Assembly: GCA_964624235.1 (NCBI GenBank)
Contig: CAZUXY010000001.1
Location: 3,016 to 67,015, forward strand
DNA length: 64,000 bases
Reading direction: 5' to 3'
Source of the DNA: an uncultured Leptospirales bacterium
Lineage (GTDB): Bacteria > Spirochaetota > UBA4802 > UBA5368
The translations under genes and the position numbers were made by a program. Below are positions 2,270 to 17,239 of the stretch, piece by piece. Below the pieces are notes generated by a model. The model saw nothing but the letters and a program-made list of their open reading frames with translations. It had not been told where the DNA came from and ran no database searches. Positions within the stretch are counted from its first letter, which is position 1; each line of letters begins with the position of its first letter.

Positions 2270-3022
2270 CTATTTGGCCGGAGTCGTAGTTTTAGGGGCC
2301 TCGGGATTAAGTATACGGTTAAGATTATCGGCCTTATGAACCTCGAATTTCCCTTTGGATTTTTCCGGATCCAGATCTTCCATTATTCTGATGCCATAGG
2401 CTTTGCATACACGATAGTGGTAGATTGAATTCGCGTAGAGACCGTCATCATAATTCCCCTGGCCATCATCAAGCTGTCCGTATGCGATTCTCAGGCGCAT
2501 CATGTTCTGAAAAACAACCTTTCCCTTATTCGGATCGGACCGGCTTCGCTCGTCTAGACTCAGGTTCAATATGGTGTCGGCGCAATCACTCAGCAGCTGT
2601 ACGCAGTGCTGCTTGTAATGATCAGAGATCTTTTTAAAAAGATCTTTAATGGTCTTTTTATTTTTCTCAAGTTCCACCCTGGCGTATATGACGTCCCTTT
2701 TGTAAAAAAAACCAACACCCTTTTTATAGCTGTCATATATAGACTGATAATCCTTATCCCATCCCTGGTCCTTGAAATTGGATGCGATAACCTTAAGCAT
2801 GTAAATCTGATCCAGGTTTTCCTTGATCAGCCTTTCAGACACCGCTATCGCCTGAAACCGCGCCAGATATCCTTCCTCGGGTCTTTCCGCTTCAGTATAT
2901 TCTTTTCTTGGATCCTTCGTCGCCTCATCCTTGGCCTTTTCCTGTGCAAGCACCCCCGTCGCCGCTATCAGGCACATGACCAGAAGCACAGCGTAAAGCT
3001 TTTTCACTAAAATGGATTTCAT
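2270..3022 (-). CDS. hypothetical secreted protein or lipoprotein
   Basis: Signal peptide MKSILVKKLYAVLLVMCLIAATGVLAQ followed by a charged Lys/Glu/Asp-rich region. No recognisable catalytic motif. Confidence 0.5.
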   Translation of the reverse strand: MKSILVKKLYAVLLVMCLIAATGVLAQEKAKDEATKDPRKEYTEAERPEEGYLARFQAIAVSERLIKENLDQIYMLKVIASNFKDQGWDKDYQSIYDSYKKGVGFFYKRDVIYARVELEKNKKTIKDLFKKISDHYKQHCVQLLSDCADTILNLSLDERSRSDPNKGKVVFQNMMRLRIAYGQLDDGQGNYDDGLYANSIYHYRVCKAYGIRIMEDLDPEKSKGKFEVHKADNLNRILNPEAPKTTTPAK

Positions 3023-3268
3023 AGATACACTCCTTTTTTTCAGCGATGCTGAATATTAACGGGCATCCTTTCCCTGATTTTCTTTAAAGGGGAATAAAAC
3101 AATCCCGCCTCTTACCCCACGGAAAAATCTGTATTTATCAGTCCATCATAAACCCAATTGGAAATAATAGGCGGTGTTTTCAATATTCGCAACTTTTTTT
3201 TTAAAAATTTTAAAAATTTTGATAAATACGGTTTCATGCTGCATATGACAGGGTCCGCGCCGTTCCTT

Positions 3269-4606
3269 TTACTTTTTAACAAGTATGATTCTGATATCCA
3301 TTACATTGGTGTTGGTGGGCCCGGTAATTATGAGATCATTCAGAATTTTAAAGAAATGATACGAATCACTGTTTTCAATATATTCATTGATATCCAGACC
3401 CAGCACCCGTGCCCGGTCCACCGTGGAGCCGTCGGCCATGGCGCCGGCCGCATCGGTGGGACCGTCGGTACCGTCGGTGCCGATACTTGCCGTTATTATC
3501 CCCTCAGTGCCCTTAAGCAGCAGTGCCGACTGGATGGCATATTCCATGTTGCGCCCGCCCAGCCCCTTGCCTTTGACCGTAACGGTGGTTTCCCCTCCGC
3601 TGATAACGCATGCCGGTATTTTAACGGGATTTCCCGTGGCGGATATTTCACGGGAGATCGCGTTATGAAAAAAGGCCACATCCCTGGTCTCCCCCTCGAA
3701 AAGCGAAGAGAGAATCATCGTATTGTACCCCCGTTTTTCCGCTTCTTCCGCCGCAGCTTTGAGCGCGATATAATTTGACGCCACGATCAGGTTAGTCACA
3801 TGCGTAAATACCCTGTCGTTTTCCTTTGGATTGTCTTCCCGTTTTCCTTCAACCCCCTCTTCTATATAACTCCGCACCGAGTCAGGGACCTTATTTAACA
3901 GCCCGTACTTTCCCAGAATGTTATGCGCATCTGAAAACGTGGAGCGGTCCGCTACAAACGGACCCGAAGCGATGACATCCATAGAGTCGCCCACCACGTC
4001 GGAGATCATAAGATTGATTACTGTTGCCGGATACGCGACCCTGGCGAGATTTCCTCCCTTCACCAGTGAGAGATGCTTTCGTATCGCGTTGATCTCATGA
4101 ATGGAGGCGCCGCTTCTCAGTAAAAGGTCCGTGGCCTGCCCCTTTTCAGCCAGGGACACCCTGTCGGGGGGGAGGGGCATAAGCGCCGATCCTCCTCCGG
4201 ATATAAGCGAAATCACCAGATCGTTTTCCCCCGCCTCTTCCAGCAGAGCACGGATTTCCGATGCCGCCTTCAGCCCGTTTTCATCAGGTATGGGATGCGA
4301 CGCCTCCCTGATCTGTATCAGTGAAAGAGGCTCTGTGTAGCCGTATTTGACCGATATACAACCCTTACTGATCCTGCTACCGAGCATTTCCTCTACAGCC
4401 AGCGCCATGGGAGAGGTTGCCTTGCCGCTCCCGACCACTATGATATTGCGGTAGTCGTCAAGGCTGTATTCTTTCAGAAGTACCCCTTCTTTATAAATCC
4501 CGATCTTATCGTTTTTCACCTTCAGGTGGTTTCTTACGGCATTGGCCGGATCAACAGCCCGGATGGCCGCACTGTATAGTGTCTTTATGTCTTCCCTCAT
4601 TTCCAT
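3269..4606 (-). CDS. glycerate kinase (MOFRL family; glycerate 2-kinase / hydroxypyruvate reductase TtuD-like)
   Basis: Full-length 445-aa match to the MOFRL/GckA architecture: VVGSGKATSPMA, LISGGGSALMP, SGPFVAD, ISGGETTVTVKGKGLGGRN and IGTDGTDGPTDAAGA are hallmark segments. Confidence 0.85.
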   Translation of the reverse strand: MEMREDIKTLYSAAIRAVDPANAVRNHLKVKNDKIGIYKEGVLLKEYSLDDYRNIIVVGSGKATSPMALAVEEMLGSRISKGCISVKYGYTEPLSLIQIREASHPIPDENGLKAASEIRALLEEAGENDLVISLISGGGSALMPLPPDRVSLAEKGQATDLLLRSGASIHEINAIRKHLSLVKGGNLARVAYPATVINLMISDVVGDSMDVIASGPFVADRSTFSDAHNILGKYGLLNKVPDSVRSYIEEGVEGKREDNPKENDRVFTHVTNLIVASNYIALKAAAEEAEKRGYNTMILSSLFEGETRDVAFFHNAISREISATGNPVKIPACVISGGETTVTVKGKGLGGRNMEYAIQSALLLKGTEGIITASIGTDGTDGPTDAAGAMADGSTVDRARVLGLDINEYIENSDSYHFFKILNDLIITGPTNTNVMDIRIILVKK

Positions 4607-5560
4607 AATGAACCAGCCTTCATTATTAAATATTCTCTCTCATCAAGACGCCAGGGTTCTTCCGCCAGCCGGTCACGGCATTTCGGCAACGCTATATTTC
4701 AGTCAGTATGCTCCCCGGTCTATCGGCGCCGTTTCATTTATTCAACTCAAATTTATACACTATAGACAGTAACAGGTCGAAATCAATAATTTTATTACAT
4801 TATAATCGTCCTTGTCTAAACATGTCCACCTGGCATTATGATTACATTTGCAGTATTAATTAACACTGAAAACAAGTTCGCTTGCCGTCAAACATATGTC
4901 AGCCGGTGCCCAATCCCATCTATAACGCCCTTGCGAACTTTCATTATATTTTCCTTTATGACCCGTGTAGCGGGACTGGGCAGTGGACCTTTAAATTACT
5001 TTGTATCAATGGATTTATTTGGTGCTGTTATAAAAACGCTTCCGGGAAAAACGTTTCGTCTAAGGATGATATTTCAGCGCGAGCTATGTCCAGTTCCTCT
5101 ACCTGCCTGCTTGCGGCGCAGCATACTCTGTGTACAGCCTTTCATGTAACACCGGAAAGATTGTTCCTGAGACACGGAGTGGCATCATTCTCCCCTTTTA
5201 CGAAGAAACCATTGGATGTCGCACCTTCGGCGACGTACCTCGCAGAATCGAGCAGGAGTACCATAGGGAATCAGCGCCGTACAGCTTCCTTTTGGGCTAT
5301 GTATGTGTACATAATTACTCACTTCCTATGCATGGACTGAAATTGACGACGGGTCCGGCTTTCGGCAAGCCGATACGGTAAACTACATCGGTGTGACCAT
5401 GGCCTCCCGGTCAACCTCCAGCACGGCAAAGTCAACACAAAAGACGACAATGTTTATCTACGAATTCAACGGAACACCTCACACGATGCCAACCGAAAAA
5501 TAAGTACCGATTTATATTATTGAATCCTAACTCGGTATGTAATGAAATTATAAATATATT

Positions 5561-5590
5561 TCTTGACAAGAATAAATTGTATGAATATAC
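5561..5590 (+). promoter_or_regulatory. putative sigma70 promoter with an overlapping small palindrome upstream of the TetR gene
   Basis: TTGACA, a 17-nt spacer, then TATACA about 30 nt upstream of the tetR ATG. The palindrome TGTAT-gaat-ATACA overlaps the -10 and is a candidate autoregulatory operator. Confidence 0.3.
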
Positions 5591-5620
5591 ATTTAATAAA
5601 AATTCATTTTTAAGGAAACC

Positions 5621-6214
5621 ATGGGAAGAAAAAGCAATCAGGATATCCGCCAAATGGAAATCCTCCTTCATTATTATGAAGTGTTAAAAACCGAAGGCGT
5701 CGAAGGAGCATCTCTCGCAAAAGTAGCTGAGCGCATGAAGTGCTACCCCAGCATACTGATTCATTATTTTAAAAATAAAGATAATATGACCGTCGCTCTC
5801 GTCGACAACGTAACAAAAAAGTATGAAGATAGTTTTATCCGACAAGCTGAAAGCATAACAGATCAAAAAAAACGTTTATTATTTATCATTAATTCAATGC
5901 TGAGTCCTCGCTGGACAGGCATACTGGATCCCGATGTATTCTACGCCCTTCTATACCTTGCCATGAGAAATAAAAAAATCAAAACAAGAATTCAAAGGAT
6001 GTACACCAGATTAAATGATTTTATTGTTAAACAGATTAGTTTATTTCGGGAATCAGGAGGCAATCCAAAACAAACCGCTGAACACATAGCAGACATGATA
6101 ATAATGCTTGTAGAGGGATATGATTTATACCGTCTGGTCAAGGATGACCAAAAGGCCGTTAAGGTGTTGGAAAACTCGATCAAAACAATAATCATATCAA
6201 TGCTTGGCCTATAA
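5621..6214 (+). CDS. TetR/AcrR-family transcriptional regulator
   Basis: N-terminal HTH ASLAKVAERMKCYPSILIHYFKNKDNM fits the TetR_N signature. 197 aa with an all-helical ligand-binding region. Low GC. Confidence 0.8.
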   Translation: MGRKSNQDIRQMEILLHYYEVLKTEGVEGASLAKVAERMKCYPSILIHYFKNKDNMTVALVDNVTKKYEDSFIRQAESITDQKKRLLFIINSMLSPRWTGILDPDVFYALLYLAMRNKKIKTRIQRMYTRLNDFIVKQISLFRESGGNPKQTAEHIADMIIMLVEGYDLYRLVKDDQKAVKVLENSIKTIIISMLGL

Positions 6215-6280
6215 TAATTGTGGTATTGTAATTTAATATAGTACGAATGTTCAAACAATATATTAAATCAGGAGTGATCC

Positions 6281-7534
6281 ATGGGATACTATGATGGAGC
6301 AAACAACACAACAAATTTACCTGACAGCATAATGACAATGCCGAAAACAGGGAAAAGCCGGGAAGAAATCGAGGATATGCTTGAAGCACTGAACCAAAAG
6401 GATGCGCGGTATAATGAAGGCCACGCGGTACTCTATACCTTTACCCTACCCTGGCATGAAGTATCTGAACTAAGCCAGATGGCTTTTACTAAATATATGA
6501 AAAAGAACGCACTCCTTGATGATCTGTTTCCCAGCATAAAAAAAATGGAAGATGATGTTAAGAATATCTGCGCAAGTATTTTACATGGAGGAACAGAAGC
6601 AAAGGTGAATCTCACGTCAGGCGGCAGCGAAAGTATCTATTCCGCTCTAAACGCAGCTCGCCAATGGGCCAAAGAACACCGGCCGGAAATTACAAGACCT
6701 GAAATTGTAGTTCCATATACAATACATGCCGCCTTCAGCAAATGGTGCAAATACACTGATATAACCATAAAAAGAATTAAAGTCGGCCCCGATTATCGGG
6801 CGGATATAAAGGCCATGGAAGAAGCCATTACATCAAATACATTCCTGATAGCCGGTTCTGCGCCGTGCTGGTCCTATGGTCTGTATGATCCTATCGACAG
6901 ACTCACAGAATTAGCGGGAAAGTACAATTTGTGGATGCACTCCGATTGCTGTTTGGGGGGATATCTTGCACCATTTGTCGAAAAGCTTGGTTACAAGCTG
7001 CCGCCATATGATTTCCGCGTGAAAGGCCTTCATTCGATTTCTGCAGACCTTCATAAATACGGATGGACTGCAAAGCCCTTATCAACGGTCTTATACAGGA
7101 ACGAGGAACTTCAGAAGTACCACTATTGCAATGTCGATGACTGGCCGTCGGGAATGTATCATTCAGAAGCGATACTGGGTTCCCGTTCGGCAGGACCCAT
7201 CGCGTCCGCATGGGCTGTAATCAACTATCTCGGCGAAGAAGGCTATCTGGAGCTCGCGCGCCGTATTATGGAAAACCGCGATAGATATATGAATGGTATA
7301 AACTCAATAGATGAACTTAAATGTTGGGATAATGATCTTTGTATCATAGTGTTTGAGACAGGCAGACTGGATACGTTCGAAGTGCTTGGATCCATGTATG
7401 CAAAAAAAGCCTATGTTTTCCCCATATTAGAGCCGCGGCTTATTCAAATCTGTCCAGATGCGGTTCAAAATCATCATATAGAATATTTCATCAATATTCT
7501 TCGCGATGTCGTCACCGAATTAAAAAAGAAGTGA
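6281..7534 (+). CDS. PLP-dependent group II decarboxylase-fold enzyme, sphingosine-1-phosphate lyase (SPL)-like, without a membrane anchor
   Basis: SISADLHKYGWTAKP closely matches the SPL PLP-lysine motif SISADTHKYG. Flanking segments LFPSIKKMEDDV, TSGGSESI, PEIVVPYTIHAAFSKW, SDCCLGGYLAPFVEKLGY and ILGSRSAGPIASAWAV resemble the SGPL1 core. At 417 aa it lacks the eukaryotic N-terminal TM/lumenal region. Confidence 0.75.
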   Translation: MGYYDGANNTTNLPDSIMTMPKTGKSREEIEDMLEALNQKDARYNEGHAVLYTFTLPWHEVSELSQMAFTKYMKKNALLDDLFPSIKKMEDDVKNICASILHGGTEAKVNLTSGGSESIYSALNAARQWAKEHRPEITRPEIVVPYTIHAAFSKWCKYTDITIKRIKVGPDYRADIKAMEEAITSNTFLIAGSAPCWSYGLYDPIDRLTELAGKYNLWMHSDCCLGGYLAPFVEKLGYKLPPYDFRVKGLHSISADLHKYGWTAKPLSTVLYRNEELQKYHYCNVDDWPSGMYHSEAILGSRSAGPIASAWAVINYLGEEGYLELARRIMENRDRYMNGINSIDELKCWDNDLCIIVFETGRLDTFEVLGSMYAKKAYVFPILEPRLIQICPDAVQNHHIEYFINILRDVVTELKKK

Positions 7535-7544
7535 GTAAAGTCTG

Positions 7545-8936
7545 ATGAATAACGACCACAGACTTCCCATACATGTGAAAATAGCCTACAGCAGCGCAGA
7601 GGGGGCACTTTCTATCGTGTATACCATAATTTACATGATCGGAATGTTTTTCTTTACCGACATCGCCGGACTATCGCCTTCAATTGCCGGCGCCATTATG
7701 ATGACCGGCACGATCTTCAACGCGATATTTGATCCCCTGGCAGGCATGCTTTCCGACAGAGTCACCACTCCACTGGGACGCAGACGGGCATTTCTGTTAT
7801 TTTCCGCGGTTCCTTACGGAATCACCGCAATTTTTCTCTTTACCGATTTCAACTTCGCTTCACCTTACCGTGAGATATACTATTTTATTATAATAACCGT
7901 ATTCTTCTGGTTTTTTTCAGCCATTAATGTTCCCTATTCATCGCTATCCGCGGAAATGACCTCTTCGTATGATGAAAGAACATCGCTGCTCGGTTGGCGT
8001 GCCGGGGTCAGTCAATTGGGGTCATTGATCGGTGCGGGATTGCCTCTTTTATTGGTTTCATTTTTCACCGCAAAACTTTTATCGAGAAACGCAGCATGGT
8101 CCGCAATGGGTACCTGTTTTGGTTTGCTCTGTATTCCTCTTATTCTCACAACCTGGCGATTTACCAGAGGATATGAGACTTATTTTCTTAAAAACGAATC
8201 TTCTTTTAGAAAATCACTTTCCGGAATTACTTCCAACACCAGTCTGCTTATGACCATCGGCATGTACACATTCGGGTTAATGGCCGTTACAGCAACCGGA
8301 TCTATTAGTATTTATTACATGACCTGTTATCTGGGATTTAACGATTTGCAGGTATCATTATATCTCGCAATCTTATTCGGGGGAAACGTCATATGGGTAC
8401 CTGCTATAGGAATAATCTCAAAAAAATTGAGCAAAAGACATGCGTATTTGATATTCGGAACAGTATGGGCGGTTTGCCAGATGTCTATTTATGCATTTAT
8501 AAATCCTGCTCATCACATATTTTTTCTCATCCTTTTACTAATCGGATCAAGCGGGCTTATCGCCGTGTTCATGATCGGCTGGGCGATGATTCCGGATTGC
8601 GTTGACGTGGATGAATATAGAACAGGAAAACGCCGGGAAGGTCTTTTTTTTGGAACCATGTTTTTTATCCAAAAGGCTTTCTGCGCCTTTTTGTTATTTC
8701 TGATCGGATTATTGTTATCCGGCATTGGATATGTCGCCAATTCCATTCAAACCGAGGAAACGATTGACGCAATCAGAATGATTATGGGTCCAGGCATTGT
8801 TTCATTGATCGTGATCAGCATCCTGTTTTGTTATCGTATTCCGCTGACACGAAAAAGACATCAGTTGATACGCAATGCCTTGATGCATGATAACAGCAAC
8901 AATTCATCGACGCGTGAAGAATTAAGTAAATTATAA
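7545..8936 (+). CDS. GPH-family (MelB/Mfsd2-like) major facilitator superfamily cation symporter
   Basis: About 12 predicted TM segments. DPLAGMLSDRVTTPLGRRRAF is the GPH-family loop 2-3 signature (D..G..SDR.....GRRRP-like). 463 aa. Immediately downstream of the SPL-like gene with an 8-nt gap. Confidence 0.8.
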   Translation: MNNDHRLPIHVKIAYSSAEGALSIVYTIIYMIGMFFFTDIAGLSPSIAGAIMMTGTIFNAIFDPLAGMLSDRVTTPLGRRRAFLLFSAVPYGITAIFLFTDFNFASPYREIYYFIIITVFFWFFSAINVPYSSLSAEMTSSYDERTSLLGWRAGVSQLGSLIGAGLPLLLVSFFTAKLLSRNAAWSAMGTCFGLLCIPLILTTWRFTRGYETYFLKNESSFRKSLSGITSNTSLLMTIGMYTFGLMAVTATGSISIYYMTCYLGFNDLQVSLYLAILFGGNVIWVPAIGIISKKLSKRHAYLIFGTVWAVCQMSIYAFINPAHHIFFLILLLIGSSGLIAVFMIGWAMIPDCVDVDEYRTGKRREGLFFGTMFFIQKAFCAFLLFLIGLLLSGIGYVANSIQTEETIDAIRMIMGPGIVSLIVISILFCYRIPLTRKRHQLIRNALMHDNSNNSSTREELSKL

Positions 8937-8999
8937 CAATATTTGAATTTTGTGAATTAAAAGGATCGAAGCGGCAATTTCAACAGGAGGTTTATTCAT

Positions 9000-10457
9000 A
9001 TGAACATAAGATTACTGTCTATATCAATCACCGGATTTGTTCTGGGTTTTTTAATCGCGGGACTGGCTATACCCTCGATTAAGAGAATCATAGTCCGGCA
9101 TGAACTGATAAAATACATTAATTGTGAATTTTCCGAATACCTGCCTCTACCCTATCACCTTATAACACCTAGTTCAATGCGGCATTTGGTCGGTGAAGCC
9201 CTGCCGGAAATATATACGTACCTGGATGATGAAATACTGGAACATGTATACTCTGCAATGGAAAAAAAGAATTCAATTCATATTGAATACGCGAAAAACA
9301 ATCCCGGTTCCGACGAAGCAATAGTCGGGTATATGGCGCAAACAAAGTTGATTTCTCAACTACATTTGTCCGATAAAGAAGCCCTGGAAAAAATCAGGGC
9401 ACTAGATGTCACCCTTCATGCCATGGTACCGGCACGATCGTTCACCGAATACTACTCCTCCCAATCGCCGAAAGGAGAGATCACGTTGCCCGCCGAATTT
9501 GAACCTTTAGAATCTGTCCTTGTCGCGTGGCCGATTTATTATCCCTATAACTGGATAATTCATACTGAATTTGTGAAATCCATCACCTCGGCTCACGCGG
9601 ATGTACATATAGTATTGCCCAATAAGTTCTGGCAGAAGGGAGTGGAGATGTTTCTTTCGATGAACAAGGTGCCGCTTGACCATGTACGATTCATCCATAC
9701 GCCGATTGATAATGTATGGATACGCGATTATGGTCCTACAACCGTGTTTCAAAAAAAAACCGGCAAAAAGTGCCTGATAGCAAATCCATATCTACCGAAC
9801 GGAGAGCCATTTCCGAAAAAGGATGGAGAAGTCCCGCTAGATATCGGCCGTTACTATGGCCTGCCAGTATACAGACTGCCTCTCGTAATTGAAGGAGGAA
9901 ACCTTATTTCAGACGGAAAGGGGACATCCATAATGTTCAACTCCCTGCTGAAGCGCAATCCCGACATCACCGAGGAAACAACAAAAAAGATATTAAAAGA
10001 CTATTTTGGAATCGACAGGATGATCCTGCTTGAATGTCTGAAAGGAGAAATTACCGGCCATATCGATATGGTGGTGCGCTTTATTGACTCTGATACGATC
10101 ATGGTGGCTGAAAGCGAGCCCGGTTATAAATGGTATAACGATTTTGAGAAAATCGCGACACACCTTTCAGGATTAACCTCGTCTAACGGCTGTAAATATA
10201 AAATAGTAAGAGTTCCAATCGCGGACAACGATAATAACTCGGTTAATTTCTGGAGCTACGTCAACAGCCTTATCGTAAATAACACGGTGATTGTTCCTGT
10301 GTTCGGCGTACCCCAGGATGAGAAATCACTTGATATATACCGTAAGACGATGCCGAAATATAAAATAATCGCTATTAATATGCGCAACTACCAAGTGGGA
10401 TCCGTACATTGCCAGAGTAAAGAGATCCCCATCAGTATGTACGCTAAAAAGCGATAA
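9000..10457 (+). CDS. agmatine deiminase / Porphyromonas-type peptidyl-arginine deiminase family enzyme with an N-terminal TM anchor and a roughly 160-aa extension
   Basis: EFEPLESVLVAWPIYYP matches EWEPHEATWLAWPH. VWIRDYGP matches SWFRDSGP. LVIEGGNLISDGKGT, ITGHIDMVVRF and the C-terminal catalytic-Cys motif GSVHCQS match GGNIHCITQ. An N-terminal hydrophobic helix spans residues 5-27. SD-like AGGAGG 8 nt upstream. Confidence 0.75.
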   Translation: MNIRLLSISITGFVLGFLIAGLAIPSIKRIIVRHELIKYINCEFSEYLPLPYHLITPSSMRHLVGEALPEIYTYLDDEILEHVYSAMEKKNSIHIEYAKNNPGSDEAIVGYMAQTKLISQLHLSDKEALEKIRALDVTLHAMVPARSFTEYYSSQSPKGEITLPAEFEPLESVLVAWPIYYPYNWIIHTEFVKSITSAHADVHIVLPNKFWQKGVEMFLSMNKVPLDHVRFIHTPIDNVWIRDYGPTTVFQKKTGKKCLIANPYLPNGEPFPKKDGEVPLDIGRYYGLPVYRLPLVIEGGNLISDGKGTSIMFNSLLKRNPDITEETTKKILKDYFGIDRMILLECLKGEITGHIDMVVRFIDSDTIMVAESEPGYKWYNDFEKIATHLSGLTSSNGCKYKIVRVPIADNDNNSVNFWSYVNSLIVNNTVIVPVFGVPQDEKSLDIYRKTMPKYKIIAINMRNYQVGSVHCQSKEIPISMYAKKR

Positions 10458-10645
10458 TCCTTTTTTCAGCACAAATTTCATAAAATATTTGCAGTAAGTG
10501 GCTGAAATCAATAACCTTATCTCATTACAAAAATCCTTGTCAAAGCATGTTCCTGTAATATAAATATTTAAGGTTTCGACCCCTGTCCGCGGTTTCCAGA
10601 GAGTGCGATATCGACGGGGACTATAAACACCCGCAGGAGCATCTA

Positions 10646-12028
10646 ATGATCACTTTTGAAAGTTACGACGACACCATAAAAAAGGTTTACACCCACGGGC
10701 AGCAACACGTTTTCACCTTCTGGGACGAACTGACCGACGGTGAGAAGAGGGAGCTGTTACAGGACCTTTCCGGAATAGACTTCGGCAAATTGAAACAGCT
10801 CTACGAAATCGCCGATAAGGACGGGACGATCAACCGTAAATTCGGTCCTCCCGATTATATCCCCCTGCCCATGTCCAAAGAAGATAAAAAGCTCCAGTCC
10901 GAAGCACGGGAAGCGGGTACAGGGCACATCTGTGCAGGCAAAACAGCGGCGTTCGTGGTGGCGGGCGGCCAGGGCACACGCCTGGGATTCGACGGTCCCA
11001 AGGGTATCTTTCCCGTAGGGCCGGTCTCGAACAAATCCCTGTTCCAGATCCATGCGGAAAAAATACTTAAAAGCTGCTGGAAATACGGGGTAGCCATCCC
11101 TTGGCTCATCATGACCTCAAGGGGTAACCATGAAGACACCGTGGATTTTTTCAATCGGCATAAAAACTTCGGACTCGACGCCAACAACGTGACCATCTTT
11201 CCACAGAACATGATCCCTTCCATAGATCTCGAAGGCCGGCTCATTCTGGAAAGCAGAAGCCGGGTATTCCGCAATCCCGACGGGCACGGGGGCAGTCTCA
11301 CCGCACTGGAATCCTCCGGCGCCCTGAAGGCGATGGAACTTAAGGGCATAGAAACAATTTCGTACTTCCAGGTGGACAATCCCCTGGTAAGGATAATTGA
11401 TCCGGTTTTCATCGGGTTTCACGTTATAAGAAACGCCGATGTCTCCAGCAAAGGGCTCCTCAAGGCCTATCCGGAGGAAAAGCTCGGCGTATTTGTACGC
11501 TTTGACGACGGCTCCACCGGCGTGGTGGAATACTCCGACCTGCCTGAAAAGCTTCAAAACCGGAAAGAACCCGACGGCAGGCTAACCTTCAGGATGGGCA
11601 GCATAGCCATCCACCTGTTCAGGCTGAAGTTTATAAAAACGATCACAGGGGAGACCACGGCGGCCCTTCCCTTTCACGTGGCGCGCAAGAAGATCCCCTC
11701 GCTGTCTAGTGACGGCATCAGGGAACTGGAGGGATATAAGTTCGAAAAATTCGTATTTGACGCCCTGCCGCTTACCGGAAACAACGTGGTTCTGGAAACC
11801 GTCAGGGAGGAGGAGTTCGCCCCGGTAAAGAACAGAAACGGTATCGATTCTGTGGACTCGTGCCGTGAGCTTATGAGTTCCCTTCACCACCGGTGGCTGA
11901 AGGAGCGCAGTATCACGGTCCCTGAAACGGTTAAAGTGGTAGAGATATCCCCCTTGCTGGCGGTAGAGGCTGATGATCTGGATAAGGACCAGCAGGTACC
12001 TTCGGCCGAAAAGGTGTACCTGGAGTGA
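10646..12028 (+). CDS. UDP-sugar pyrophosphorylase, eukaryotic-type UDPGP family (UAP1/USP-like)
   Basis: FVVAGGQGTRLGFDGPKG carries the nucleotide-binding loop. NPDGHGG, FQVDNPLV and a C-terminal left-handed-helix-like tail fit the pfam UDPGP architecture. GC about 58%, typical of the host backbone. Confidence 0.75.
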   Translation: MITFESYDDTIKKVYTHGQQHVFTFWDELTDGEKRELLQDLSGIDFGKLKQLYEIADKDGTINRKFGPPDYIPLPMSKEDKKLQSEAREAGTGHICAGKTAAFVVAGGQGTRLGFDGPKGIFPVGPVSNKSLFQIHAEKILKSCWKYGVAIPWLIMTSRGNHEDTVDFFNRHKNFGLDANNVTIFPQNMIPSIDLEGRLILESRSRVFRNPDGHGGSLTALESSGALKAMELKGIETISYFQVDNPLVRIIDPVFIGFHVIRNADVSSKGLLKAYPEEKLGVFVRFDDGSTGVVEYSDLPEKLQNRKEPDGRLTFRMGSIAIHLFRLKFIKTITGETTAALPFHVARKKIPSLSSDGIRELEGYKFEKFVFDALPLTGNNVVLETVREEEFAPVKNRNGIDSVDSCRELMSSLHHRWLKERSITVPETVKVVEISPLLAVEADDLDKDQQVPSAEKVYLE

Positions 12029-12247
12029 TTTTACGCTAATCTGCTTGACATAACCGCGAAAACGGCGCTACGTTCGCGGCAAAGGCGCCGTCATTCGTCG
12101 ATAAAAAGTTTCGCGCTTACATGGATTTCTAGGGAAAAGACCGTTGATAATAAACTCTGCGCCTTCGTGTCTCTGCGGCCGATGCACTTCAGTTCATTTA
12201 TCTATTATGGTGCTGTATTTTTATACCCGGCAGGAAAGGTTGGTTCC

Positions 12248-13111
12248 ATGAAAAAATACATCGAAAAGGTAAACACGCTCACCGAGTCGTTCCCCTACAT
12301 TCGCGAGTTTTACGGTAAAACCATCGTTATCAAGTACGGCGGGCACGCGATGGAAGAGGAATCCCTCAGAAAGTCCTTTGCGGCCGACATGGTACTGCTG
12401 AAACTGGTGGGAGTAAACCCCGTGATCGTCCACGGCGGCGGGCCCCAGATCGGAAGCCTGCTGAAACAGCTGGGGAAGAAGAGCGAGTTTGTGGACGGGC
12501 TCAGGGTTACCGACGGCGAAACCATGGAGGTGGTCGAGATGGTGCTGGTGGGGAAGGTAAACAAGGAGATAGTCAACAACATCAATATGGTAGGAGGCCA
12601 TGCAGTCGGCCTGAGCGGTAAGGACGGGGGACTCCTGGTGGCCGAAAAGGTCTACCATAACTCCAATGGGAAACCAATGGATATAGGCCAGGTGGGGACG
12701 GTCAAAAAAGTGAACCCGCGCATCATCGAAACTCTCGACCGGGAACGTTTTATCCCGGTGATCGCCCCCATAGGGTTCGACGAAACGGGAATGACCTACA
12801 ACATAAACGCCGACATCGCGGCGGGAAAGATCGCTGAAGCGTTGAAGGCCGAAAAGCTTATACTGCTTACCGACGTCGAGGGGGTGAAGATCGCAGACAA
12901 ACTCGCTTCTTCCCTTACCGACAGGGAGATCCCTGACCTGATTAAACGAAACGAGATCTCCGGCGGGATGATACCCAAGGTGCGGTGCTGTCTCGACGCC
13001 ATCGCGGCGGGAGTCAATAAGACCCACATCATCGACGGAAGGGTCGAGCATGCCGTGCTGCTCGAGATATTCACCGATGCCGGGATAGGCACCGAGATCG
13101 TAACCTCCTGA
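12248..13111 (+). CDS. argB: acetylglutamate kinase
   Basis: From the ATG at 12248: [62 protein letters not shown] is the canonical ArgB signature. The track ORF begins at an upstream GTG (12167) whose 27 extra residues are not ArgB-like. Confidence 0.9.
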
Positions 13112-13122
13112 TCACGGAAAAA

Positions 13123-13152
13123 TGTTTGACATAAACCCTTCGGTCAATAGAT
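13123..13152 (+). promoter_or_regulatory. putative sigma70 promoter for tRNA-Ser
   Basis: TTGACA at 13127, a 16-nt spacer, then TAGATT just upstream of the tRNA 5' end. A similar TTGACATAA motif occurs at about 12042 upstream of argB. Confidence 0.3.
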
Positions 13153-13159
13153 TAGCCCC

Positions 13160-13243
13160 GGAGGGTTGTCTGAGCGGTCTATAGAGGCGGTCTTGAAAAC
13201 CGTTGGGTTAACAGCCCCGGGGGTTCGAATCCCTCACCCTCCG
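13160..13243 (+). tRNA. tRNA-Ser (anticodon TGA)
   Basis: Acceptor stem GGAGGGT/ACCCTCC. D-arm GTCTGAGCGGTCTATAGA. Anticodon loop CT-TGA-AA. Long variable arm typical of class II Ser. T-arm GGTTCGAATCC. Discriminator G. Confidence 0.8.
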
Positions 13244-13263
13244 CAGATACCTCAATTAATCAA

Positions 13264-13348
13264 GGAGAGATGCCCGAGAGGCCGAAGGGGACGGTTTGCT
13301 AAACCGTTGTACCATTAGGTACCAAGGGTTCGAATCCCTTTCTCTCCG
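13264..13348 (+). tRNA. tRNA-Ser (anticodon GCT)
   Basis: Acceptor GGAGAGA/TCTCTCC. Anticodon loop TT-GCT-AA. Long variable arm. T-loop GGTTCGAATCC. Confidence 0.8.
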
Positions 13349-13368
13349 ATATTATCGTCAGGAACAGG

Positions 13369-13833
13369 ATGATCACACGCGAGAAATTCCAGTCTGCGGT
13401 CTCAACGATCGCGACGAAAGCCCTTTTTCTGAAAGAAAAAGCCGTATACATATGGAAGCACGCTCCTTCGTACTGGAACGCGGTTTTTGAGAAAAAAAAC
13501 GAAGGCTACCTTGCGGCCGCGGCGTATATCCCGTTCATCGGCTGGCTGTTGCCGCTCTACCTGAAAGAAGAGAGTGATTTCTGCCAGGAGAGCGGCAAGA
13601 CGGGATTCATTCTGGCCATTTTTTTCACGGGCCTGGTATTAGGTCTTTTTTTCATCAACTTGTTTTTCATTCCCAGGGACTGGAGGGTGGTCCGTCTTAT
13701 CATGGTACTGCTGGTGTATGCATGCTACGCAGTGTACTTTCCTCTCTGCGGGTACGGGATGTACCTTTCGGTGCACGGAAAAAAACTTGAAATCCCGTTC
13801 CTTTCGCAGTATAGGAACATTATTCCGCTGTAA
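13369..13833 (+). CDS. hypothetical small integral membrane protein
   Basis: 154 aa with three to four hydrophobic helices (IPFIGWLLPLYL, GFILAIFFTGLVLGLFFINLFFI, LIMVLLVYACYAVYFPL). Sits between the tRNA genes. No catalytic motifs. Confidence 0.5.
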   Translation: MITREKFQSAVSTIATKALFLKEKAVYIWKHAPSYWNAVFEKKNEGYLAAAAYIPFIGWLLPLYLKEESDFCQESGKTGFILAIFFTGLVLGLFFINLFFIPRDWRVVRLIMVLLVYACYAVYFPLCGYGMYLSVHGKKLEIPFLSQYRNIIPL

Positions 13834-13846
13834 CCAGTAAACAAAC

Positions 13847-13920
13847 GCGTCCATAGCTCAGTTGGATAGAGCGCCGGACTACGAATCCGTAGGTCAGAGG
13901 TTCGAATCCTCTTGGACGCA
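13847..13920 (+). tRNA. tRNA-Arg (anticodon ACG)
   Basis: Acceptor GCGTCCA/TGGACGC. D-arm AGCTCAGTTGGATAGAGC. Anticodon loop CT-ACG-AA. T-arm GGTTCGAATCC. Discriminator A. Confidence 0.8.
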
Positions 13921-13928
13921 AAGAACCC

Positions 13929-13956
13929 GAAAGCGCGGATACGTATCCGCGCTTTC
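13929..13956 (+). terminator. perfect 14+14 palindromic hairpin after tRNA-Arg, a putative intrinsic terminator or processing hairpin
   Basis: GAAAGCGCGGATAC/GTATCCGCGCTTTC followed by TTCTTACTAT, a weak U-tract. Lies between the tRNA-Arg(ACG) 3' end and the tadA ATG. Confidence 0.4.
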
Positions 13957-13990
13957 TTACTATATGCAACAGAGTATCGGTATCTTTACC

Positions 13991-14452
13991 ATGAACAGCG
14001 ACGAAATCTACATGCGGCTCGCGCTTGACGAAGCGCGCAAAGCGGCAGAAAGGGGCGAAGTGCCCGTCGGCGCTGTTATCGTGGACGGCGGTACGGTGAT
14101 CGTAAGGGCGTGCAACCGCAACCGGTCGCTGAACGACCCGGTACAGCATGCCGAGATAATCGCCATAAGGGAAGCCGCGCTGCTGCGCGCAAACGAAAGA
14201 CTGACGGGCTGCGATATCTACGTAACCAAGGAGCCGTGCGCCATGTGCGCGGGGGCCATAGTGCACGCGCGCATCCAAAGGGTATACATCGGCACAGAAG
14301 ATGAAAAATACGGCGCCTGCGGTACGGTGCTTTCAGTGTGCGGAAATCCCCGTCTTAATCATATACCGGAAGTCCGCTTCGGGATATTAAGGGAAGAATG
14401 CGCGCGGCTGCTTACCGACTTTTTCAAAAAACTCCGTCGAGGGAAGGAGTAA
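13991..14452 (+). CDS. tadA: tRNA-specific adenosine deaminase
   Basis: MNSDEIYMRLALDEARKAAERGEVPVGAVIV...HAEIIAIREA...TKEPCAMCAGAI is the CDA-fold HAE...PCxxC zinc motif of TadA. 153 aa. The track ORF (from 13862) runs back into the tRNA and is rejected as the start. Confidence 0.85.
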   Translation: MNSDEIYMRLALDEARKAAERGEVPVGAVIVDGGTVIVRACNRNRSLNDPVQHAEIIAIREAALLRANERLTGCDIYVTKEPCAMCAGAIVHARIQRVYIGTEDEKYGACGTVLSVCGNPRLNHIPEVRFGILREECARLLTDFFKKLRRGKE

Positions 14453-14474
14453 CGGCGAACCTTCAGTGCGGCGA

Positions 14475-15941
14475 TCACCTTTTACCCAGAAGCGAGCCCA
14501 GCACCCCGCGGATAAGGGAACGACCCAGCTGGCTGCCTACCGCCCGGGCGGCGCTCTTTACCATGGCGTCCACGACCGAATCCCCCCGTCGCCCCCGTTT
14601 GGCCTCACGCGGTTCCTCCTGTTCGACGGCGTCTTCTGTTTCTGCCGTCTTTTCGGCCTTTCCCTTCAGTATCTCGAACGCCGATTCCCGGTCGACCTCC
14701 TTCTCATAATGGCCGTAAAGGGCCGACCCTTTGATGATGCTTACCCGCTCATCCTTCGTTAACGGCCCTATGCGGCTTTCCGGCGGGCGTATATGGGCAC
14801 GCTGGACGATTCCCGGAGTCCCCTTCTCGTCAAGAAAACTCACCAGGGCCTCTCCCACCCCCAGTTCCATAATGGCCTTCTCGGTGTCTAGTTTCGGGTT
14901 TTCCCGAAAGGTCTGTGCGGCTGCCCTGACGGCCTTCTGGTCACGGGGGGTAAAGGCCCGCAGCGCGTGCTGAATGCGGTTTCCCATCTGGCCCAGCACC
15001 CTGTCGGGAACATCCAGGGGATTCTGGGTGATAAAATAGACTCCCACCCCCTTGGATCGGATCAACCGCACCACCTGTTCTATCTTCTCAAGCAGGGCGG
15101 CCGGCGCGTCGGTGAACAGGAGGTGCGCTTCATCAAAGAAGAAGACCAGCTTCGGTTTTTCCGGGTCCCCCGTTTCGGGGAGCTGTTCGAAGAGCTCCGA
15201 GAGCAGCCACAGGAGAAAGCTCGCATACACCCGCGGCACGTTGATGAGCCGGTCCGCGGCGAGAATGTTTATGATCCCCTGACCTTTCGTGTCGGTCTGC
15301 AGAAAGTCGTTCATGTCCAGCGCCGGCTCGCCGAAGATGCTGCCGGCCCCCTCCTCCTCCAGGGCGAGGAGCCCCCTTTGAATGGCGCCCACGCTGGCCG
15401 CCGACACTTTTCCGTACTCGGTGGTGATCTCCCGCGCATGGTCCCCTGTGTGCTGGAGCATGGCCCTCAGGTCTTTCAGATCGAGCAAAAGCAGCCCGTT
15501 GTCGTCGGCGAAGCGGAACACCAGGGAAAGCACGCCGCTCTGGGTTTCATTCAGGTTCAACAGCCGCGACAGCAGCAGCGGTCCCATTTCGGTGATGGTG
15601 GTGCGCACAGGATGTCCCTGCGCCCCGAAGAGGTCCCAGAAAACCACCGGGCACCCTGCCGGGGTGTAGTTACTTATGGACATATCTTTGATTCGTTCCT
15701 TTACCTTCGGATTGTCGCCGGCGGGTTTGCCGATGCCCGCGAGATCGCCCTTGACATCGGCCATGAAACAGGGGACGCCGATGCGGCTGAACTGTTCGGC
15801 AAGCACCTGCAGCGTCACGGTTTTGCCGGTACCGGTGGCGCCGGCGATCAGGCCGTGCCGGTTAGCCATCCTCGGCAGCAGAAAAAGTTCTTTATCAGAT
15901 TTCGCTATGAAAAGTCCGTTTTCTTTCATGATATTCCTCAC
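14475..15941 (-). CDS. DUF853/HerA-like P-loop NTPase (YjgR family)
   Basis: Walker A GATGTGKT near the N-terminus and Walker [10 protein letters not shown]. 488 aa with a basic/acidic C-terminal tail. Architecture of the HerA-like ATPase family. Confidence 0.7.
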
Positions 15942-16183
15942 GTCGATTCAGGCCCATCGGCCGTTTCCCGGTATCACCATCTGCTTTCATGGAGCATAAT
16001 CAAGAAAAAACCGTCCGTCAACCATATTTGGAACCGTCGGGTCATTGCACCTGAAACCGGAATTATTTGCCGTGTCAGTGTTCACACCAAAAAATGCAAC
16101 ATAACACTGTTATGAATTTATGGTTGAAAAAATCGTTTCACACCGTAAGTCTGGAATCACATCATCCTCGAAGGAGCGGCTTT

Positions 16184-17005
16184 ATGTCAAATTATGAGTT
16201 CTATATCGTCGATAAAAAACCTCCCATCGCGTGGGTCTACCTTAACAGGCCCGACAAGCTAAACGCGATGCACGCGCCCGCATGGAAGGAATCCATTCCC
16301 ATTTTCCAGGACCTGGACCGGGACGACGCGATCAAAGTGGTAATTATATCAGGGAAGGGAAGCTGCTTCACCGCCGGCATCGACCTTATCGGCATGGCGC
16401 CCGAGGTTCCCGAGATAATGCCCAAGGACCCCAGGGGCGCCGTCAAGATAAAGCTGGTACAGAAGATCCAGGCGCTGCAGGAAACCATGACCAGCATAGA
16501 GCGCTGCAAAAAACCGGTCATCGCGGCGGTGCATGGATACTGCATAGGCGCCGGCCTAGATATGATCACCGCCTGCGATATACGCCTGTGTTCCAGAGAC
16601 GCGGTTTTTTCGGTGCGGGAGGCCAAGGTCGCCATCGTCGCCGACGTGGGAACCCTGCAGCGGCTGCCCCACATCGTGGGCCAGGGCATCGCCCGGGAAA
16701 TGGCGTACACGGCGAAGGACATCGACGCACAGCGCGCCAGAGAGGTGAATCTGGTGAACCATGTCTACGAGGACTATGATTCCCTCATGAAAGGCGCCGA
16801 GGAGATGGCGAATGAAATCCTCACCAATTCGCCGCTGGCGGTACAGGCATCGAAGATGGTGCTGAACTACTGTATCGGCAAAACCATCGATGACGGACTG
16901 AAATACGTGTCCGCCGTCAGTTCGAACATTCTCCCCTCCGACGACCTGGTGGAGGCTATAACCGCACGGATGGAGAAAAGGAAACCCAATTTTACTGGGA
17001 AATAA
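16184..17005 (+). CDS. enoyl-CoA hydratase/isomerase (crotonase fold)
   Basis: From the ATG at 16184 (RBS AAGGAG): MSNYEFYIVDKKPPIAWVYLNRPDKLNAM..FTAGIDL..PVIAAVHGYCIGAGLDM are crotonase oxyanion-hole segments. The track ORF starts further upstream at 16067. Confidence 0.85.
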   Translation: MSNYEFYIVDKKPPIAWVYLNRPDKLNAMHAPAWKESIPIFQDLDRDDAIKVVIISGKGSCFTAGIDLIGMAPEVPEIMPKDPRGAVKIKLVQKIQALQETMTSIERCKKPVIAAVHGYCIGAGLDMITACDIRLCSRDAVFSVREAKVAIVADVGTLQRLPHIVGQGIAREMAYTAKDIDAQRAREVNLVNHVYEDYDSLMKGAEEMANEILTNSPLAVQASKMVLNYCIGKTIDDGLKYVSAVSSNILPSDDLVEAITARMEKRKPNFTGK

Positions 17006-17059
17006 TAAAACAAACCGATGTTACTTTAAGCACTGTGGTACATTTTATCAGCCACGGAG

Positions 17060-17216
17060 GCACAGAGGAAAAGCGTCGCAAAACCAGTTCATACTGCTAT
17101 CTTTTCAGGCAAAGCGGAAAGTCAATTTGTAAAAAGCATACATCCCGCTGCTTGATTCCCTGAAACAGCACGGGTTTGTTTTTCTTGTTCCCCAAAAACC
17201 TCTGTGCCTCTGTGGC
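17060..17216. repeat. 17-nt imperfect inverted repeat bracketing a 120-nt spacer in the convergent echA/asmA intergenic region
   Basis: CCACGGAGGCACAGAGG at about 17061 and CCTCTGTGCCTCTGTGG at about 17198 are 16/17 complementary. A related GGAGGCACAAAGG / CCTTTGTTGTGCC pair occurs on the other side of asmA (18850-19010). Confidence 0.35.
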
Positions 17217-17239
17217 AATATTTATTGATCTTTTGTTTC

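Follow-up and report, generated by a model that had tools for sequence, protein, structure and literature searches.

A four-gene cassette of an uncultured Leptospirales bacterium that may serve the uptake, decarboxylation and deimination of an arginine-like compound

Introduction

Does a bacterial gene pair that recalls the eukaryotic transporter and lyase of sphingosine 1-phosphate (S1P) in fact serve the breakdown of a sphingoid-base phosphate? The question is raised by a 64,000-nucleotide stretch of DNA from an uncultured Leptospirales bacterium (contig CAZUXY010000001.1, positions 3,016 to 67,015), referred to here as the window, in which a gene for a pyridoxal 5′-phosphate (PLP)-dependent enzyme resembling S1P lyase (SPL or S1PL) is followed directly by a gene for a transporter of the GPH family. 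An earlier note on this DNA had suggested that the two genes act together to take up and cleave a phosphorylated long-chain base or a related amino-alcohol phosphate. The analysis presented below points elsewhere. The pair is part of a cassette of four genes, which has about an even chance of encoding an inducible system that imports an arginine-like guanidino compound, decarboxylates it and deiminates it. Such a compound, and not a sphingolipid, is proposed because the enzyme has lost most of the ligands of the lipid phosphate and because the cassette combines it with a guanidino-group deiminase and a sugar-type transporter.

Organization and conservation of the cassette

The four genes lie on the forward strand in the order tetR, SPL-family PLP-dependent enzyme, GPH transporter and PAD_porph deiminase, separated by intergenic gaps of 66, 10 and 63 nucleotides (nt) from 5′ to 3′. 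The first (5621–6214) specifies a TetR-family repressor of 197 amino acids (aa) with TetR_N and TetR_C_37 domains and weak similarity to BetI. The second (6281–7534) specifies the SPL-family group II PLP-dependent enzyme of 417 aa, a proposed amino-acid decarboxylase in which the PLP site is intact and the S1P phosphate site is not conserved. It is followed by the gene for a GPH/MFS_2 cation symporter-type transporter of 463 aa (7545–8936; PF13347, TIGR00792) and by that for a guanidino-group deiminase of the PAD_porph family (9000–10457; 485 aa, PF04371), which has an N-terminal transmembrane helix and the catalytic residues of its family. The transporter gene does adjoin the enzyme gene, as the earlier note had it; the gap between them is 10 nt (7535–7544) and not 8. 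The tetR gene and the PAD_porph gene, which were outside the pair considered there, are members of the same unit.

Ten metagenome contigs carry identical copies of the cassette. In two further lineages, L007/L016 (an uncultured Leptospirales metagenome-assembled genome, MAG) and L073, the four genes are found in the same order at 64–80% identity, and the genes that flank them differ among the window, L007 and L073. The presence of the same cassette in three unrelated genomic contexts suggests that it is a horizontally moved unit. The G+C content of the region that includes the cassette (4001–10000) is 42–45%, compared with approximately 52% around it; no transposase or integrase was seen adjoining the cassette. 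No convincing terminator was found between the four genes, in a scan whose terminator and promoter counts were no better than those for shuffled sequence, and an Rfam search of positions 4000–11000, at E values up to 1, returned no match to a riboswitch, the guanidine riboswitch included.

The PLP-dependent enzyme compared with S1P lyases

The 417-aa open reading frame at 6281–7534 contains the sequence SISADLHKYG, and its description as an SPL-like PLP enzyme is borne out by a phmmer search of the PDB, in which the ten best matches were all S1P lyases. These included StSPL (3mad; E value 2e-79, residues 19–375), the human (4q6r; 8e-67), yeast (3mc6; 2e-63) and Aspergillus (7e-61) enzymes, and those of Burkholderia (5k1r; 3e-54) and Legionella (4w8i; 5e-43). 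MfnA and the glutamate decarboxylases (GadB) were matched at 1e-26 and 1e-14, respectively. The protein scores 55.8 bits against the Pfam model Pyridoxal_deC (PF00282; gathering score 27), a match that does not separate a decarboxylase from a lyase, since the S1PLs also belong to PF00282. The best NCBIfam model, MfnA (TIGR03812), gave 209.9 bits, below the equivalog cut-off of 299.4, and placement inside a characterised decarboxylase clade, part of the outcome that the earlier note had said would refute its proposal, was not found. An AlphaFold2 (AF2) model of the monomer, with a predicted local distance difference test score (pLDDT) of 83.5 and low confidence in the substrate loop (residues 46–55) and in the loop at 285–301, superposes on SPL structures with template-modelling (TM) scores of 0.77–0.79 and on MfnA with a score of 0.74. 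Approximately 46 residues precede the core and there is no N-terminal hydrophobic segment, in agreement with the observation made earlier that the membrane anchor to the endoplasmic reticulum is lacking.

The residues that define an S1P lyase have been tabulated. In StSPL numbering, the PLP site comprises K311, D274, H201, C276 and G168/T169/H310/S353, the substrate phosphate is held by Y105, H129, A103, N126 and K317, and Y482 lies at the substrate entry (Table 3 of PMC6148460, with which PMC10243590 agrees). Among the phosphate ligands, H129 is Q in Burkholderia and A103 may be T. These positions were compared in the window protein, 116 database homologues and the StSPL segment from the PDB phmmer alignment. 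It is apparent that the PLP site has been kept: K259 (equivalent to K311), H258, D222, C224, H149, G115/S116 and S301 are all present, and these positions are invariant or conservatively substituted across 117 homologues. Two of the phosphate ligands are likewise retained, as N76 (N126) and K265 (K317). The other three have been replaced, A103 by Y52, Y105 by L56 (F54 in the HMMER alignment) and H129 by L79, and the substrate loop carries a two-residue insertion in the region of Y105. The SPL-specific tyrosine and histidine of the phosphate site, which the earlier note had proposed to look for, have therefore given way to L/F and L. The same is true of the relatives, for the A/Y/H triad occurs in none of the 116 closest homologues, in which A103 is replaced by Y, Y105 by L or F, and H129 by L, V, Y or F. 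The C-terminal A-x-x-Y-G motif that contains Y482 of StSPL is present in all of the aligned canonical-type representatives; the window protein and its clade end approximately 40 residues earlier and lack it. In sum, four of the six substrate-binding or entry residues of S1PL are missing, three of the five phosphate ligands among them.

A neighbour-joining tree of 156 sequences sets the group that bears the canonical [A/T/S/V]-Y-H signature, StSPL included, apart from the short-form clade that holds the window protein. This topology is indicative only, as the tree has no bootstrap values and a single-sequence outgroup, and it was built with StSPL residues 69–427 and canonical-signature database representatives, the yeast, Burkholderia, Legionella and MfnA proteins being left out. 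The canonical-signature sequences have N-terminal extensions of 80–260 aa and C-terminal extensions of approximately 80 aa. Members of the short-form group are 410–430 aa long, and their pocket residues vary from clade to clade. Judged by these comparisons, the window protein is a member of the SPL superfamily that departs from the S1P lyases in four substrate-specific features.

Among 1.84 billion cluster representatives, phmmer detected 902 relatives at E values up to 1e-30; the clade of the window protein collapses to a single cluster representative (48% identity), and the next is 42% identical. Elsewhere in the superfamily there are large, apparently uncharacterised clades with other pockets (P0201–P0333), such as [Y/L]-Y-N-N with a C-terminal extension of approximately 120 aa and G-Y-N-Y with long N-termini. 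Such pockets indicate that enzymes of the superfamily act on many kinds of substrate other than S1P.

The deiminase and the transporter

Hydrolysis of a guanidino to a ureido group is the established chemistry of the PAD_porph family, and several lines of evidence place the product of the fourth gene in that family. It matches PF04371 with 187.8 bits, and in 24 family members the catalytic residues D243, H354, D356 and C471 do not vary. The score against the agmatine deiminase equivalog AguA (TIGR03380), 115 bits, is far from the cut-off of 381.8. The PDB matches are 1xkn, the Porphyromonas gingivalis enzyme PPAD and agmatine deiminases, and in the AF2 model (pLDDT 89.6) the catalytic domain superposes on PPAD and agmatine deiminases with root-mean-square deviations (rmsd) of 2.4–3.3 Å. 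The protein consists of a transmembrane helix (approximately residues 5–27), a helical domain (57–134) and the catalytic domain (160–477); residues 1–160 (9000–9480) are also modelled with confidence (pLDDT 72–98). In all of the approximately 60 sequence clusters of this family the catalytic domain is preceded by the transmembrane helix at the N-terminus and by about 100 residues of helical domain, features that define an uncharacterised subfamily of PAD_porph. Basic residues come after the helix in the window protein and in the majority of the family, so that, by the positive-inside rule, the catalytic domain is predicted to be cytoplasmic and held at the membrane by a tether.

The transporter belongs to the GPH family, as had been claimed, and hence to the family of MFSD2A: it matches PF13347 with 247.9 bits and, over its full length, TIGR00792 with 232.2 bits (cut-off 231.35). 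A particular relationship to MFSD2A is not apparent. In the PDB, MFSD2A was matched at an E value of 7e-22 (81 bits), mainly in the N-terminal half with the best stretch at residues 12–167, and MelB at 8e-19 (71 bits) over the full length. The NCBIfam models for YagG, GusB and MelB scored 137–177 bits, all under their cut-offs. On this evidence the protein would be an ordinary GPH member with no specific affinity to MFSD2. Its identity to the GPH proteins encoded beside PAD homologues in loci L076 and L080 is 39–40%.

Genomic neighbours of the deiminase family

When approximately 77 loci with PAD genes were clustered, GPH genes were found in 11 and group II decarboxylase genes in seven. In L080 and L108 the PAD and GPH genes overlap by 4 nt and there is no PLP enzyme. 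The L076 locus is an operon with genes for a TetR_C_37 regulator, GPH, URO-D, an iron-containing alcohol dehydrogenase (Fe-ADH), a CoA-transferase, PAD, a CN_hydrolase, a group II decarboxylase, a C45 protein and a class-III aminotransferase. Its TetR, GPH and PAD proteins are 39%, 40% and 41% identical, respectively, to their counterparts in the window, and the order GPH–PAD–AguB–decarboxylase is repeated in L092, L095, L109 and L115. The CN_hydrolase of L076 surpasses the cut-off for the N-carbamoylputrescine amidase AguB (437 against 410 bits), and the aminotransferase falls just under that for putrescine aminotransferase (579 against 612). Since GPH recurs with PAD, in L080 as in the L076 lineage, the conserved partner of the transporter is the guanidino deiminase and not the SPL-like enzyme.

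The decarboxylase of L076, which contains SISADLHKNG, shares 28% identity with the window enzyme; its score is 219 bits with the MfnA model and, in the PDB, 141 bits with StSPL and 112 with MfnA. In L105 a decarboxylase of this type directly precedes PAD, and in L139 a third SPL-family subtype follows it. Three types of the MfnA/SPL superfamily (those of the window, L076 and L139) are thus found beside PAD, and the PLP-enzyme slot is filled interchangeably by members of the MfnA/SPL group. The L139 gene (700–1562, on a short contig) shifts reading frame once, which may reflect a sequencing error or a pseudogene. A substrate loop of the form EG.H...TLPW is common to the window and L076 types and occurs in no other of approximately 270 sequences compared; this would fit a common substrate, and could be a coincidence.

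The L076 operon (2702–17285), like L077 and L109, also contains genes for two URO-D/MtaA-like methyltransferases and a B12-binding protein, along with the Fe-ADH and a CoA-transferase of the butyryl/4-hydroxybutyrate type. This content suggests anaerobic demethylation of a methylated substrate, whose carbon skeleton is fermented via γ-aminobutyrate (GABA) and 4-hydroxybutyrate.

In nine loci the PAD gene is adjoined by a gene of the small multidrug resistance (SMR) family, of the SugE/Smr type, with scores below the cut-offs. The SMR gene, of 105 aa, lies 31–450 nt from PAD (L093, 3508–3825; L096, L097, L098, L100, L101, L111, L134 and L135), often together with genes for a TetR regulator and a GNAT acetyltransferase. 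SugE-type SMR proteins are guanidinium exporters, and these neighbours hint at small guanidinium-type compounds as the substrates of the PAD subfamily.

Genomic neighbours of the PLP-enzyme relatives

A scan of 185,579 species genomes for relatives of the PLP enzyme yielded 57 loci. Within 10 kb of the relative, GPH or PAD genes were found in the Leptospirales MAG only, and GPH in none of the 55 other loci. Homologues 57–58% identical to the window enzyme have genes for APC amino-acid permeases directly upstream, a link to amino-acid metabolism; typing of these permeases gave generic 'amino acid transporter' matches far below the cut-offs, and no substrate was named. TetR_C_37 regulators also adjoin relatives of the PLP enzyme.

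Two further observations concern conserved neighbours. In 14 loci (L013, 9314–9664; L015, 9284–9691; and 12 others) a conserved protein of 115–135 aa with a hydrophobic N-terminus is encoded 40–150 nt after SPL-like genes of a sister clade, whose products are 427 aa long, and is probably a dedicated partner of those enzymes. An SCP2-like identity, suggested by eye, was dropped, as it had no Pfam support and the best E value in a PDB profile search was 1.3. In a clade of SPL-like enzymes 41% identical to that of the window, with the pocket N-L-N-F (L052, L062, L064, L065, L067, L070 and L061; Marinobacterium, Amphritea, Halopseudomonas and related organisms), a conserved operon includes genes for LuxR, Ldh_2, a class-III aminotransferase, two SDRs, an arginase-family ureohydrolase and an MFS_1 transporter. 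It is a second, independent link of the superfamily to guanidino-group hydrolysis.

The regulator and its putative operators

The TetR protein matches PF18665 with 52 bits; the BetI models reach 45 bits, far under their cut-offs. Its identity to the regulators at the equivalent position in L073 and L007 is 64–80%, and to that of the L076 operon 39%. A putative tetR promoter (5563–5597, forward strand) contains TTGACA at 5563–5568 and a first candidate operator, GTATGAATATACATTTAAT, at 5579–5597, with the core pseudo-palindrome TGAATATACA. A second copy, GTACGAATGTTCAAACAAT, is situated at 6241–6259 on the same strand, 22 nt upstream of the start codon of the SPL-like gene. The 19-nt motif GTAYGAAYRTWCAWWYAAT (core TGAAYRTWCA), a pattern derived from the same two sites that it matches, occurs at exactly two places in the 64-kb window and nowhere in shuffled sequences. 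Both positions are conserved in all three lineages (the window, L007 and L073), and in the intergenic alignment around the second copy, where mean identity over the three is 80%, the motif is nearly invariant. Two conserved copies, one in the tetR promoter and one shortly before the PLP-enzyme gene, are the pattern expected of an autoregulated TetR protein that also controls the three downstream genes. By this reasoning TetR would bind both copies of the motif.

Proposed pathway and its alternatives

Together these data can be arranged into a pathway. TetR would sit on two pseudo-palindromes, one at the tetR promoter and the other directly before the PLP-enzyme gene, until the substrate or an intermediate released it. 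The GPH transporter would import the compound. The SPL-family enzyme, with its PLP machinery whole and its phosphate pocket and C-terminal tunnel motif lost, would α-decarboxylate the amino-acid end, and the tethered PAD_porph enzyme would hydrolyse the guanidino group to a ureido group. Were L-arginine the substrate, N-carbamoylputrescine would be formed, via agmatine if decarboxylation came first or via citrulline if deimination did. As AguB is absent from the window, the pathway here would end at the ureido amine. The conserved gene order, the operator motif, the loss of S1P-specific residues, the intact catalytic sets and the presence of AguB in related operons are direct observations; import, decarboxylation, the identity of the substrate and the binding of the repressor are what we infer.

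A number of observations weigh against this interpretation. In overall similarity, proven lyases are much closer to the SPL-like enzyme than is any proven decarboxylase, and its rebuilt pocket is hydrophobic (Y, L/F, L) yet keeps K265 and offers no obvious cationic guanidinium site. The deiminase lacks the NAWGGK region of AguA and has P and L at the positions of the carboxylate-binding R152 and R154 of PPAD. Neither the SPL subclade of the window enzyme nor the PAD subfamily includes a characterised protein. Genes for GPH and for a decarboxylase are both absent from the majority of PAD-family loci, and the L076 decarboxylase could instead serve the downstream GABA/4-hydroxybutyrate branch. 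Genes for a CN_hydrolase/AguB, an aminotransferase, URO-D or other components of the L076 operon were not found in the 64-kb window, a search for them giving a single weak CoA-transferase match at 34.6–35.9 kb. Finally, GPH transporters classically carry glycosides and not amino acids.

The proposition that the SPL family has produced an unrecognised class of arginine/citrulline decarboxylase, feeding the formation of N-carbamoylputrescine, is put forward tentatively, as a possibility with the odds against it and as a more cautious idea than the membrane-centred pathway considered below. If the proposed chemistry is right, a basic-amino-acid decarboxylase for polyamine-type metabolism would have arisen independently once more, in the SPL/MfnA group, here working with an uncharacterised, membrane-tethered, agmatine-deiminase-like subfamily and a GPH carrier of a non-glycoside. 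As the cassette is small and self-contained, with an identifiable repressor and operator, the hypothesis is directly testable by heterologous expression.

Among the alternatives, one keeps the decarboxylase and reverses the transporter, making GPH an exporter or exchanger that serves pH or energy homeostasis or secretes an amine or ureido compound. The enzyme does belong to the group II decarboxylases (PF00282), decarboxylase–transporter pairs such as AdiA/AdiC and GadB/GadC are common, and the window has no downstream amidase. GPH members, however, are symporters and not precursor/product antiporters; the GPH–PAD pair is also found without any decarboxylase; and TetR operators, together with the catabolic genes carried by homologous GPH–PAD loci (AguB, aminotransferase, Fe-ADH and CoA-transferase), fit inducible uptake and catabolism better. 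This alternative is accordingly considered rather unlikely. It takes up the second suggestion of the earlier note, an MfnA-like decarboxylase whose product is exported by the symporter, of which the decarboxylase is the part closer to the genomic context and export the part that is not indicated.

A C–C lyase acting on a non-phosphorylated amphipathic substrate is less probable again. The transporter would move a membrane-associated guanidino amine or lipid, the deiminase would modify its head group and the SPL-like enzyme would cleave its chain. Such a scheme would make sense of the phosphate pocket turned hydrophobic (Y52, F54/L56, L79), of the membrane helix on the PAD enzyme, of a fold and sequence nearest to those of lipid lyases, and of a transporter family that includes the lysolipid carrier MFSD2A. 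It does not account for the co-occurrence of the PAD family with AguB and a putrescine-aminotransferase-like gene, for the MfnA-like decarboxylases that can occupy the same slot, or for the APC amino-acid permeases beside the nearest homologues; moreover, the enzyme has neither a membrane anchor nor the C-terminal tunnel motif, and the cassette contains no lipid-metabolism gene. A wider version, in which an MFSD2-related carrier, a deiminase at the inner face and an SPL-family enzyme with a hydrophobic pocket, cleaving or decarboxylating the backbone, form an undescribed, membrane-centred pathway whose substrate is a guanidino amine or lipid of amphipathic character, is regarded as improbable.

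The uptake of a phosphorylated long-chain base or amino-alcohol phosphate, followed by SPL-like retro-aldol cleavage as for S1P with MFSD2B and SGPL1, is the module with which this study opened, and it now seems very improbable. Proven S1P lyases are indeed the best PDB relatives of the enzyme, N126 and K317 of the phosphate site are kept, and MFSD2A is among the top PDB matches of the transporter. Against this, A103, Y105 and H129 are replaced throughout the clade and the Y482 motif is missing; the enzyme lies outside the canonical S1PL clade; GPH adjoins its relatives in none of 55 other loci; the transporter co-varies with the deiminase and not with the PLP enzyme, and is as similar to MelB as to MFSD2A; and the model has no role for a co-regulated guanidino deiminase. 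As for an incidental adjacency of unrelated genes, SPL-like relatives elsewhere do have many different neighbours, but the retention of four genes in order at 64–80% identity in three genomic contexts, the shared operator motif and the recurrence of the TetR/GPH/PAD trio in L076 at 39–41% identity leave that explanation with next to no probability.

Sequences flanking the cassette

Upstream of the cassette, approximately 1 kb (4607–5560) separates a glycerate-kinase-like gene (3269–4606, minus strand) from the tetR promoter. It contains only short open reading frames with weak starts, Rfam gave no match in it, and either the remains of a gene or an extended regulatory region may lie here. Further upstream, a 250-aa protein (2270–3022) has a weak match to the Leptospira adhesin OmpL37, consistent with a closest genome match that is itself of Leptospirales affinity. 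Downstream, a UDPGP-family nucleotidyltransferase gene without an NCBIfam match (10646–12028) begins 188 nt past the cassette on the same strand and is followed by the gene for ArgB.

Comparison with known systems

A full-text literature search, in which subscription journals were not covered, returned no publication that connects SPL-like or MfnA-like enzymes with agmatine deiminase or with the decarboxylation of arginine. With the S1P lyases (StSPL 3MAD, SGPL1 4Q6R, Dpl1p 3MC6 and S1PL2021 5K1R; EC 4.1.2.27) the window enzyme shares the fold, the lysine of S-x-S-A-D-x-H-K-Y-G, the equivalents of Asp274, His201 and Cys276, the phosphate cup and the N126/K317 pair; identity to StSPL is approximately 39% over 352 aligned positions, and the TM scores to SPL structures given above are those from Foldseek. 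It differs from them in lacking A103/Y105/H129, the C-terminal segment of approximately 40 residues and the anchor, in its short N-terminus and separate clade, and in having a deiminase and a transporter, not sphingolipid genes, as its genomic partners. Automatic pipelines name such bacterial proteins sphinganine-1-phosphate aldolase or glutamate/tyrosine decarboxylase-like. Because a large branch of the superfamily is without the S1P phosphate site, the label of S1P lyase should not be passed to the short-form SPL branch.

MfnA, the archaeal L-tyrosine/L-aspartate decarboxylase (TIGR03812; 3F9T, 6LDS), belongs to the same superfamily, is likewise of approximately 400 aa with no long extensions, and its model matches residues 26–410 of the window enzyme; decarboxylation is also the chemistry proposed for the latter. 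The two differ in that the window enzyme stays below the MfnA cut-off, is much closer to SPL in the PDB search (2e-79, against 1e-26 for MfnA) and is found in no methanofuran or CoA context.

The SpeA/AguA/AguB route (arginine decarboxylase, agmatine deiminase and N-carbamoylputrescine amidase) is a parallel to the cassette as a whole. The window, too, would encode a decarboxylase together with a PAD_porph-family deiminase, and operons of the L076 type add a bona fide AguB and a putrescine-aminotransferase-like gene. The differences lie in the parts. The candidate decarboxylase is of the SPL/MfnA group, and not an arginine decarboxylase of the alanine-racemase-fold, aspartate-aminotransferase-fold or pyruvoyl type; the deiminase is far below the AguA equivalog, has an extra transmembrane helix and helical domain and is without the NAWGGK region; AguB is not encoded in the window; and the transporter is of the GPH family, not an APC antiporter. 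For the deiminase domain, PPAD of P. gingivalis (4YT9) and 1xkn share the place of best structural match (rmsd 2.4–2.9 Å), and the catalytic Asp/His/Asp/Cys residues of PPAD align. In PPAD, R152 and R154 clamp the C-terminal carboxylate of a peptide, a clamp that the P and L of the window deiminase would not provide; the latter also has no Ig-like or secretion domain, and its membrane helix predicts a cytoplasmic and not a secreted enzyme. Within the GPH family (TC 2.A.2; MelB, MFSD2A), the window transporter has the full-length MFS_2 architecture. As read here, the cassette is a decarboxylase/deiminase route built from non-canonical members of these families.

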